From: Sedimentisphaerales bacterium
GTDB taxonomy: Bacteria > Planctomycetota > Phycisphaerae > Sedimentisphaerales > Anaerobacaceae
Length of the DNA stretch: 64,000 bases
NCBI GenBank assembly: GCA_963708075.1
Contig: OY970194.1
Coordinates: forward strand, 7,008,001 to 7,072,000
Direction: 5' to 3'
The position numbers were made by a program, and so were the translations under genes. Positions 13,011 through 23,141 of the stretch are shown here, piece after piece (positions within the stretch are counted from its first letter, which is position 1; the number at the start of each line of letters is the position of its first letter). A model generated the notes under the pieces. The model worked only from the letters and a program-made list of their open reading frames with translations, searched no databases and was not told where the DNA came from.

Positions 13011-13039
13011 TTGACAAGCATTGCCTGTCGTATTAAAGT
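13011..13039 (+). promoter_or_regulatory. Sigma70-type promoter of the S10 operon
   Basis: TTGACA-N17-TAAAGT with an AT-rich upstream tract. Confidence 0.75.
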
Positions 13040-13456
13040 TGAAGTTTTCGGCTGTAGCGAGCATGGCCATGGATGGTTGTGCGATACGTAGTTACGCTGT
13101 GGCATATCTGTGATTGCCATCATGGATGGCGAAATAGGTGCTCTGTTGAATGTCAGGGTTTAGGCAAAGCTGCTGAAAGCTTTGCGAGGTCTCGGATAGA
13201 GCCAACGGACCCTATGCTCTAAGGAAGGCTGTTCAAGCGGTCGGTAACCGCTGAGAAGATCAGCGGCACGCCGGAGTAGTGACGGTGCCTTTCCTGCCCT
13301 TGTTCAAACGAGCGGTTTCGGTGCAGGCCAGAGACCATCTGTCTCGCGCGGAACCGCGATTGTGTATCAATAGCGTCAGATTGTTGAAGCTTGTGCCGGT
13401 GCAGGACCTGTAAGCTCTGTGCCTGAGCACGGAAAGAGGTAGTCCAAAGGGGCATT

Positions 13457-16382: not shown

Positions 16383-16655
16383 ATGGGAAGATCTCTTAAA
16401 AAAGGACCATATGTCGATGAGAAGCTCTTTGCCAAGGTGAATCGGCAAGTGGCTACCGGCACACGCGATCCCATCAAGACCTGGGCGCGAAGGTGCACCA
16501 TCGTTCCGGAGTTCGTCGGCTTCACATTCATGGTCCACAATGGCAAGATGTTTCACAAAGTCTTTGTGACCGAGGATATGGTCGGACACAAGCTGGGTGA
16601 GTTTTCGCTGACGCGGACGTTCAAGGGACATTCGAGCAAGAAGCTCAAGGTGTAG
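16383..16655 (+). CDS. rpsS: 30S ribosomal protein S19
   Basis: [17 protein letters not shown]. Confidence 0.99.
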
Positions 16656-16704
16656 AGCCGCCGGCGGAGTTGAAGGGAAGTCCGCTAAAGACGGGACATG
16701 ATAT

Positions 16705-17253
16705 ATGATTAGCCCTGCAAAATTGAAGAAAGTAGCGAAACGACAACGGGTAACCACGGAAGCCCTGGCGCGCGGGCTGGTCCGTGGCGGGCTCGATATG
16801 AAAGAGGCGACCTCGCGGGTGAAGAACTGGCAGAGAGGTCTGATGCGGCCTCTGCCCCACACGGAAGATGTGCGACGGCTCGCCGAGACGCTGTCGGTCG
16901 AGGCCAACGAGATTGCCGCGTGGCATTCTTCCTATATGTACGCCCCGCAGGCACCTCGCAAAGTGCGGCTGGTGACGCAGTTGATCCAGGGCCGCAATGT
17001 GCAGGAGGCGATGGACCTGCTGAAATTCACGAGAAAGCGTGCCGCCACGATGGTGGATCAGACGCTCAAGGCCGCCATTGCCGATGCGGACGAGCAGCAG
17101 GCCGATGTGGACAACCTGGTTGTCAGCGAGGCGCGCGTCGATGAGGCGGGCATCCGGCTGGGCACGAAGCGGTGGATCCCCAAGGACCGCGGTCGGGCTC
17201 ATCCGCTTCACAAGCTGGCCTGCCACATACACATAACAGTGACACAAAAGTAA
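16705..17253 (+). CDS. rplV: 50S ribosomal protein L22 with a ~70-aa N-terminal HTH-like domain
   Basis: C-terminal ~110 aa carry PRKVRLV, AIADA, PKDRGRA, HIHITV; position between rpsS and rpsC. Confidence 0.93.
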   Translation: MISPAKLKKVAKRQRVTTEALARGLVRGGLDMKEATSRVKNWQRGLMRPLPHTEDVRRLAETLSVEANEIAAWHSSYMYAPQAPRKVRLVTQLIQGRNVQEAMDLLKFTRKRAATMVDQTLKAAIADADEQQADVDNLVVSEARVDEAGIRLGTKRWIPKDRGRAHPLHKLACHIHITVTQK

Positions 17254-17289
17254 AGAGGACAACGAGAGTCGTACTGAGATACCTGAACT

Positions 17290-18120
17290 ATGGGTCAGAA
17301 AACACAACCGATAGGCTTTAGAACAGGAATCACGCTGGGCTGGCAGAGCACGTGGTTTGCTCCGAAGAACAGCTACGGCGACTTCCTCGTCGAGGACCAG
17401 AAAATCCGGGGCTACATTGACCGGCGATTCAACCGCCAGATGCCCAAGGGGGCTGTGGCCAAGGTCGAGATCATTCGCACTCGCAACGAGGTGAATGTGA
17501 CCATGCACAGCGGGCGGCCGGGCGTGGTGATCGGTCCGCGAGGCGGCGAGGTCGACAAGGTCCGCGAGGAACTGGAAGCTCTGACCGGCCGCAAGGTCAC
17601 GGTGAACGTTATTGAGATCAAGGAGCCGGACCTCAACGCCGCGTTGGTGGCGGAGGGCGTTGCCGAGCAACTGTCCAAGCGTGCCTCGTTCCGACGCACG
17701 ATGAAGCAGTTCTGCGAGGCGGGGATGAACGCTGGAGCCAAAGGTGTGAAAATCATGACCAGCGGGCGCCTGGCCGGAGCTGAAATGGCCCGGCAGGAGA
17801 CCCAGAAGCTGGGAAGCATTCCACTGCACACGCTGGATGCCGACGTCGATTATGCGACGGCGACAGCCCGAACGACGTACGGCGCGATCGGTGTCAAGGT
17901 GTGGATCTATAAGGGCAAGTTTGGGGAGGAGATCGAGCGAGTGGAGCGAAAGCAAAGGCGTCGCCCGACGCGGGGCAGGCCGTACGGTCCTTCAGGTGGA
18001 CCGGGCTATGACGACCGCGGCGTGCCGGAACAGGCCGCGGTTGCTCCTGCAACGCCCCAGGGGCCGCCTGACAGGGGTCCAACCCCGGAGCCAACTCCCG
18101 GAGCCCAAGGGCAGGCATGA
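17290..18120 (+). CDS. rpsC: 30S ribosomal protein S3 with Pro/Gly-rich C-terminal tail
   Basis: MGQKTQPIGFR, SGRLAGAEMAR, GVKVWIYKG. Confidence 0.99.
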   Translation: MGQKTQPIGFRTGITLGWQSTWFAPKNSYGDFLVEDQKIRGYIDRRFNRQMPKGAVAKVEIIRTRNEVNVTMHSGRPGVVIGPRGGEVDKVREELEALTGRKVTVNVIEIKEPDLNAALVAEGVAEQLSKRASFRRTMKQFCEAGMNAGAKGVKIMTSGRLAGAEMARQETQKLGSIPLHTLDADVDYATATARTTYGAIGVKVWIYKGKFGEEIERVERKQRRRPTRGRPYGPSGGPGYDDRGVPEQAAVAPATPQGPPDRGPTPEPTPGAQGQA

Positions 18121-22654: not shown

Positions 22655-23141
22655 ATGTTAAGTCATGAGATTACTTCTGTCGTAGGCAGACACAAAGCAC
22701 GCAAGCGTGTCGGAAGGGGTCGCGGCACGGGCCAGGGTGGGTCCTCCGGACGCGGAACCAAGGGCGCTCTCAGTAGAGCCGCGCCAAAAGGTTTCCACTC
22801 CGTGAAAGCGGGGCGACGCCCATGTTCCGGCATCTGCCCAAACGCGGGTTCAACAACAAGGAATTCGCCACGAGGTTCATGGTGGTGAATGTCTCGCAAC
22901 TGGAGCGGTTCGACGATGCGCGCAGGTGGGCGTGGAGCAACTGTCCACTGCCGGCCTGATTGCCGGCGTCGAGACCAAGGTGAAGATCCTCGGTGACGGC
23001 GAGCTGACGAAGCGGTTGCAAGTAGTCGCCCACAAGTTCAGCAAGTCCGCCGAGCAGAAGATCGTCGGCTGCGGCGGAACCGCCACGAAGATCGCCCAGA
23101 AGAAGAAACCGTCCAGGAGGAGGAAAGAGGTCAAGGCATAG
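22655..23141 (+). CDS. rplO: 50S ribosomal protein L15, with two apparent single-base deletions (~22781, ~22918)
   Basis: RKRVGRG..GRGTKG, then LPKRGFNN in a second frame, then [16 protein letters not shown] in a third; one G at each site restores one ORF. Confidence 0.93.

Follow-up and report, generated by a model that had tools for sequence, protein, structure and literature searches.

Where a bacterial ribosomal protein is extended, the extension is usually a tail. The ribosomal protein uL22 encoded in the window, by which we mean the whole stretch of 64,000 nucleotides analysed, resembles bacterial uL22 (PF00237, TIGR01044) in core sequence, fold and operon position, but it carries an extra folded N-terminal domain of 70 residues and, throughout its order, a 3-residue hairpin insertion. 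The extra domain shares its predicted helical fold with XRE/Cro regulators (C.Csp231I, C.AhdI, P22 c2 and SinR; PF01381; Z 8.7-10.0), to which it also has weak Pfam similarity; it differs from them in being fused to a ribosomal protein, in a longer connection between helices 2 and 3, and in that no operator was found at the S10 promoter. A ribosome-binding helix-turn-helix (HTH) of the Cro/C1 type is described, in the available text of PMC7486125, for EDF1/MBF1 of eukaryotes and archaea (fold match to the domain, Z 6.8-7.1). EDF1/MBF1 is, however, a separate factor of the small subunit that is reported absent from bacteria, whereas here the HTH is a covalent part of a large-subunit protein; it opens the protein at residue 1, with uL22 coming directly after it, and an MBF1 or zinc-ribbon N-terminal domain is absent. 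The extended uL22 of chloroplasts also has additional mass, but the accessible portions of PMC5071890 and PMC5389730 present it largely as extended tails. The NCBIfam model PRK12279, "L22/unknown domain fusion", matches only the core of the window protein, over model positions 13-108 of 311 and far below its cut-off. In the Toxoplasma mitoribosome, regulator folds are likewise reused as ribosome parts, ApiAP2 and BolA being named in the available sections of PMC11742926, but that system concerns an organelle with fragmented rRNA and separate proteins. The sequence-only reading of this DNA knew of no described HTH-uL22 fusion, and the literature that we searched, which lay mostly outside subscription journals, likewise gave no description (see also the available parts of PMC13338714 and PMC5694952). 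The protein thus apparently represents an undescribed, lineage-wide uL22 architecture.

Between rpsS and rpsC lies an ORF of 182 codons (16705..17253, + strand, ATG) that starts 49 nt past the rpsS stop; ORFs on the - strand overlap it, and the region also contains three shorter ones on the + strand in other frames. Pfam Ribosomal_L22 spans residues 79-179 of its product with 93.1 bits against a cut-off of 28, and the TIGR01044 cut-off is passed as well (85.2 versus 73.65 bits). In the predicted model, the stretch from residue 71 to residue 182 superposes on residues 1-110 of a solved bacterial uL22 (Z 19.7, rmsd 1.2 Å, 109 aligned), which indicates that exactly 70 residues have been added without a linker. 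Since residue 71 coincides with Met1 of the solved protein, the core starts there (nt 16915), one codon away from the earlier estimate of near residue 72. The full-length model, based on a 66-row alignment, is confident throughout, including the junction between domain and core (pLDDT 94.3, pTM 0.84). The fusion proposed from the letters alone is therefore real: the peptides then quoted are present, and the ORF consists of a 70-residue domain and a normal uL22. The source genome gives a single uL22 match, as does each carrier genome. The tunnel hairpin is 3 residues longer in all Sedimentisphaerales cores shown than in most other Phycisphaerae, which does not hold for the carriers of the families f19 and f27 introduced below; the fold matches included a solved 50S of Deinococcus whose L22 has an insertion of three residues. 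Further along the window, a uL15-like frame (22655-23141) is seemingly split across two ORFs, possibly by a sequencing frameshift, and there is no uL30-sized gap between it and the uS5-like ORF (gene names read from translations).

Table 1. Positions in the window of the features discussed.
Feature	Position	Strand	Basis or remark
Sigma-70-type promoter-like site upstream of rpsJ	13011..13039	+	Equivalents in carriers and non-carriers
Candidate structured RNA at the S10 transcript 5' end	13049..13099	+	Outer stem, purine-rich internal loop, inner hairpin; Sedimentisphaerales only
rpsS (uS19), upstream neighbour of rplV	16383..16655	+	
Predicted XRE/Cro-like helix-turn-helix domain, residues 1-70 of the uL22 ORF	16705..16914	+	Predicted fold, Pfam matches in homologues, dN/dS
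uL22 core, residues 71-182	16915..17253	+	In frame with the HTH domain, no linker; PF00237, TIGR01044, structural superposition
Tunnel hairpin stretch of uL22, residues 148-154	17146..17166	+	
rpsC (uS3), downstream neighbour of rplV	17290..18120	+	Pro/Gly-rich tail

The nature of the added domain was addressed by structure prediction and by profile searches. AlphaFold2 on the domain alone gave a pLDDT of 95.4, and the predicted model has helices at residues 4-13, 18-26, 32-43 and 53-62 followed by a short fifth, with about 8 additional residues connecting helices 2 and 3. The best fold match among 48,161 chains was C.Csp231I (3lfp_A; Z 10.0, rmsd 1.5 Å, 66 aligned), and the next matches included C.AhdI, BswR, P22 c2 (Z 8.8) and SinR; Foldseek returned the same fold family (TM 0.72), with none at E<=0.001. 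Because a Z below about 13 in the fold search may reflect an arrangement common among helical bundles, the HTH assignment rests on fold, Pfam and profile search together. A Pfam scan of the window protein itself gave no HTH match. Among 49 homologous domains examined at E<=0.1, HTH_31 matched 28 (best 1.1e-6) and HTH_3 matched 20 (best 3.5e-6); four fused relatives stayed below the HTH_3 gathering score of 23 bits, two of them at 21.9 and 22.9 and two without any match. A profile search over 1.84 billion representatives gave 171 matches, and the best 150 of these 171 were fused uL22 proteins, their fragments and, for the rest, mostly XRE-type proteins. The nearest sequence matches other than uL22 were XRE proteins, and three of the five standalone ones scanned exceeded the HTH_3 cut-off. 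A sequence-profile match in the PDB to TniQ (E 0.001) found no backing in the fold search and was set aside, the ESM Atlas search gave no usable match, and a homodimer prediction for the full-length protein scored 0.00, a "no answer" that weighs neither way. Predicted fold, Pfam matches in relatives and the fold search thus agree with the initial proposal of a folded XRE/Cro-like HTH at the N-terminus, and as modelled the extension is a compact XRE/Cro helix-turn-helix that superposes on lambda-repressor-like domains.

Initiation at the L22 core, which the sequence-only reading had named among the results that would speak against a fusion, is not borne out. The long start codon is ATG in 46 and GTG in 11 of 57 genes, 46 of the 57 lack a start codon anywhere in positions 68-73, and only four have an ATG at 66-76, so that in these sequences no internal start is conserved and translation from the core is unlikely. 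Judged from substitution ratios, the domain is under purifying selection: in nine close pairs, picked from a list of 14, the domain had a dN/dS of 0.22 and the core one of 0.088, and pooling all 14 pairs, distant ones included, gave 0.39 versus 0.23. In one RNA run, whose share was 0.06 and which came mostly from other organisms, positions 16675-17400 were uncovered. Within the domain, small or hydrophobic residues occupy most of the positions that are invariant or nearly so (A22, A35, A38, W42, P49 and A60). N41 is also near-invariant and K/R40 is kept in Sedimentisphaerales, while the helix-3 positions 36 and 37 vary. We take N41 to correspond to a base-reading position of the phage 434 repressor; two of the three helix-3 positions that presumably read bases in phage repressors would then vary in the domain. 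The domain does not retain two features that we regard as repressor hallmarks, namely a Gln at the start of helix 2 and an acidic residue following the Trp of helix 3. The net charge of the domain has a median of +4 and ranges from -4 to +8; by region, helix 1 (+2.2) and loop 44-52 (+2.4) are basic and helices 4-5 are acidic.

The extension was then traced through the planctomycetes. A search of relatives matched in 41 of 41 genomes (the source genome and 40 relatives), and all loci extracted at the level of the order read with the extension; it is therefore not a chance feature. The domain profile matched in 90 of 401 genomes sampled from the class, and 65 of the 66 other Sedimentisphaerales genomes have the domain, the single miss (G220) having no uL22 assembled. 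The absence from close relatives that would have spoken against the fusion was thus not seen. Two families of the Phycisphaerales type, f19 (19/19) and f27 (4/4), also carry the domain. All four genomes scored in family f2, which are contained in these counts, have it. It was not detected in the 249 genomes of 16 other families of the class, among them the 19 genomes of family f26, which is nested among carriers in the operon tree. In a sample of the phylum, 17 of 401 genomes matched, every one in a family already identified. The core lies 9-110 nt from rpsS in non-carrier loci versus 217-383 nt in carriers, and so short a spacing means that the domain is physically absent there. An f19/f27 alignment fetched 80 loci, mostly under Phycisphaerales or Phycisphaeraceae titles, and in every one a single ORF encodes both domain and core. 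Among named species, the fusion is present in Limihaloglobus sulfuriphilus (AQQ72051.1), Anaerohalosphaera lusitana (AQT69848.1) and Sedimentisphaera salicampi (ARN57654.1). The database names returned for fused proteins were plain L22, and an NCBI record of 122 aa (P0279) clusters with fused proteins of 184 aa, which suggests that an upstream start was missed in annotation.

One match, the only one among 62 genomes of family f9 (G327:C360), was set aside: where rpsS ends, its contig passes from f9-type into order-type sequence, and an ordinary rplV lies elsewhere in the same genome. It is probably an assembly chimera, with a real transfer as a possible alternative. The contigs C360 (L218) and C290 (L217) of this genome both break within or at rpsS, and the rplV to which the f9 operon of C360 is joined is of the order type.

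The history of the fusion was followed on a tree of 16 operon proteins from which uL22 was left out, using 43 of 60 rows (15 were dropped for run time, along with the chimeric row and one near-duplicate). On this tree the carriers require at least two changes on starred branches, and a single carrier clade is rejected (AU p 1.4e-43, LG+G4). The uL22 cores follow the operon, since those of Sedimentisphaerales form a clade (99/95), and those of f19 and f27 group with non-carrier families (89/88, unstarred). A domain model built from the order only gave f19 domains 44.5-69.0 bits and f27 domains 65.1 and 70.6, versus 40.9 for the best standalone XRE domain, and with the reverse model 35 of 38 scored above the best standalone domain. 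By these profile scores the domains of both carrier lineages are homologous. Because the carriers do not form one clade, either a 5' piece moved between lineages or an old fusion was lost several times. For the domain of f19 and f27, the best explanation is that the 5' piece encoding it was transferred onto a native rplV; it may instead descend from an ancestral fusion followed by several losses. A small gene for an XRE/Cro-type repressor would have been captured by rplV, in frame and at its 5' end, the captured domain would have become a fixed part of uL22, and its coding piece would later have been transferred onto the native rplV of the second lineage. In the domain tree, which lacks resolution, two standalone XRE rows fall among the basal fused rows, and for this reason we name no donor.

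What the domain does on the ribosome was considered in the light of these results. Our leading, tentative reading is that it has been repurposed as a basic part of the 50S surface and binds rRNA near the tunnel exit. The sequence-only reading had likewise named the binding of rRNA or of a factor at this site as alternatives to autoregulation. Because the genome has this uL22 only, each 50S subunit presumably carries the domain, which would face the solvent close to the tunnel exit. The basic face of the domain (helix 1, the end of helix 3 and loop 44-52) would most likely bind the rRNA backbone, with no reading of sequence, as a structural add-on, and operator-binding repressor activity would probably have been lost. 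We favour this role because a Cro-type HTH binds rRNA in EDF1/Mbf1, where it sits between rRNA helices h16 and h33 according to the available text of PMC7486125; because the globular part of uL22 is surface-exposed, as the accessible part of 10.1101/2022.04.20.488877 describes; and because the carriers share no operator at the S10 promoter. The fold matches also include chains seen on ribosomes, one from the Toxoplasma mitoribosome (9g6k_Lj, Z 7.4) and EDF1 bound to an 80S ribosome (9p73_CH, Z 7.1). A comparison of 18 sequences of the 23S gene, one of them partial, showed no column or indel that separates 10 carriers from 8 non-carriers, which counts against rRNA binding. The 23S gene of G031 (L225) has an insertion of about 290 nt that is absent from the other sequences covering that stretch. 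Five operon columns that tracked carriers were dropped, being present in non-carrier families too. Further results count against it: the charge is weak for an rRNA binder, being zero or below in 8 of 49 domains, N41 and, in the order, K/R40 are retained, and the top fold matches are DNA-binding regulators and not ribosome factors.

It is possible, though rather unlikely, that the domain instead serves at the tunnel exit as a surface for protein docking or gating, altering the access of deformylase, methionine aminopeptidase, trigger factor, the translocon or a lineage-specific factor to the nascent chain. The deformylase site is formed by uL22 with bL32 and rRNA, according to the accessible part of 10.1101/2022.04.20.488877, the available text of PMC5389730 proposes that extensions of chloroplast L13, L21 and L22 form a membrane-facing surface at the tunnel exit, and the acidic helices 4-5 would suit such a role. 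However, deformylase is kept in 31 of 32 genomes, trigger factor in 32 of 32 and bL32 in 199 of 201; in the loci that could be read (28 of 30), the C-terminal helix of deformylase looks similar between the 13 carriers and the 15 non-carriers, and no partner gene was found for the domain. The idea that the domain compensates for a lost neighbour was rejected, since bL32, trigger factor and deformylase are retained and uL23, uL24 and uL29 are in nearly all operons.

The sequence-only reading had raised the possibility that free HTH-uL22 regulates the S10 operon as a DNA-binding protein. This idea gained no support, as the carriers' S10 promoter regions share no palindrome and two of the three putative base-reading positions of helix 3 vary. 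The dyad survey covered 13 regions of the order, 59 de-duplicated regions of the f19/f27 type and 36 non-carrier regions, and no dyad with 4-bp half-sites was common to both carrier groups in more than about a tenth of each; an A/T-tract dyad occurred in 8 of the 13 order regions and in 4 of the 36 non-carrier ones. No 7-mer was enriched in f19/f27 leaders beyond shuffles. More broadly, feedback of the free protein on its own operon, either through a structured S10 leader RNA or as a DNA repressor, seems unlikely to us, even with an intact XRE fold and a covarying RNA just past the S10 promoter. That RNA was present in 91 of 101 Sedimentisphaerales genomes and in none of 129 genomes outside the order, the latter searched with an earlier model (R1) whose outer stem was one column off. 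In 12 sequences, 81.6% of cells pair, compared with 67.7% in shuffles (0/500 as high) and 33-41% in slid controls, and both sides change in 9 of 13 pairs, the structure having been drawn from these same 12 sequences. Rfam gave no match for it, and model R1 had none in four 23S loci. Since its structure is conserved, covaries and lies 5' of an operon for ribosomal proteins, it looks like a candidate new ribosomal leader; leader RNAs are treated in the available text of PMC3849166, and the accessible main text of PMC7247131 makes no mention of planctomycetes. S10 leaders are also longer in carriers (median 185 nt versus 85 nt), kin not being independent in this comparison.

Because the RNA was not found in the second carrier lineage (0/7 f19/f27 genomes, and 0/8 loci with filters off), it is unlikely to be the general target of the domain. 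It was also found in only 2 of 10 f2 genomes, yet all the scored f2 genomes carry the domain, and its ligand could be any other S10-spc protein. A second, long-range inverted repeat lies in the S10 leader (about 13221-13295, + strand) and recurs in several genomes of the order. At the loci L164, L165 and L168, also from the order, a second promoter-like site lies 60-100 nt before rpsJ, and the leader RNA may therefore have its own transcript. A uL22 with two jobs, covering tunnel-exit rRNA on the ribosome and binding the order-specific S10 leader RNA when free, with the domain piece later recombined onto the rplV of another order, is in our estimate quite unlikely.

The domain might also be a tolerated passenger, fixed by chance and kept only for core packing and the start codon. 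Conservation is chiefly of core residues and mean column entropy is higher in the domain (2.0 bits) than in the uL22 core (1.24 bits), as a passenger would allow, and the lack of the domain in f26 points the same way. Against this, its length is near-constant, its surface charge pattern is retained, and it is kept in every scored genome of the carrier families with an assembled rplV; we would also expect a costly load in a highly expressed gene to be lost more often and not to spread to a second lineage. We consider this explanation improbable. That a protease removes the domain during assembly or stress, so that it acts off the ribosome, is very improbable, for although DdrO, ImmR and CapH, repressors controlled by proteolysis, are among the fold matches, the protein has no flexible linker and its junction leads directly into the first strand at high model confidence.

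Because three named species carry the fusion, the reading of the domain as an rRNA-binding part of the 50S surface can be tested directly by cryo-EM and proteomics. Throughout an order, and in a separate second lineage, a universal tunnel protein has a whole regulator-type fold as a fixed part. If our reading is true, bacteria would offer an example of a repressor fold put to new use on the ribosome, and possibly one of domain transfer into an essential ribosomal gene.
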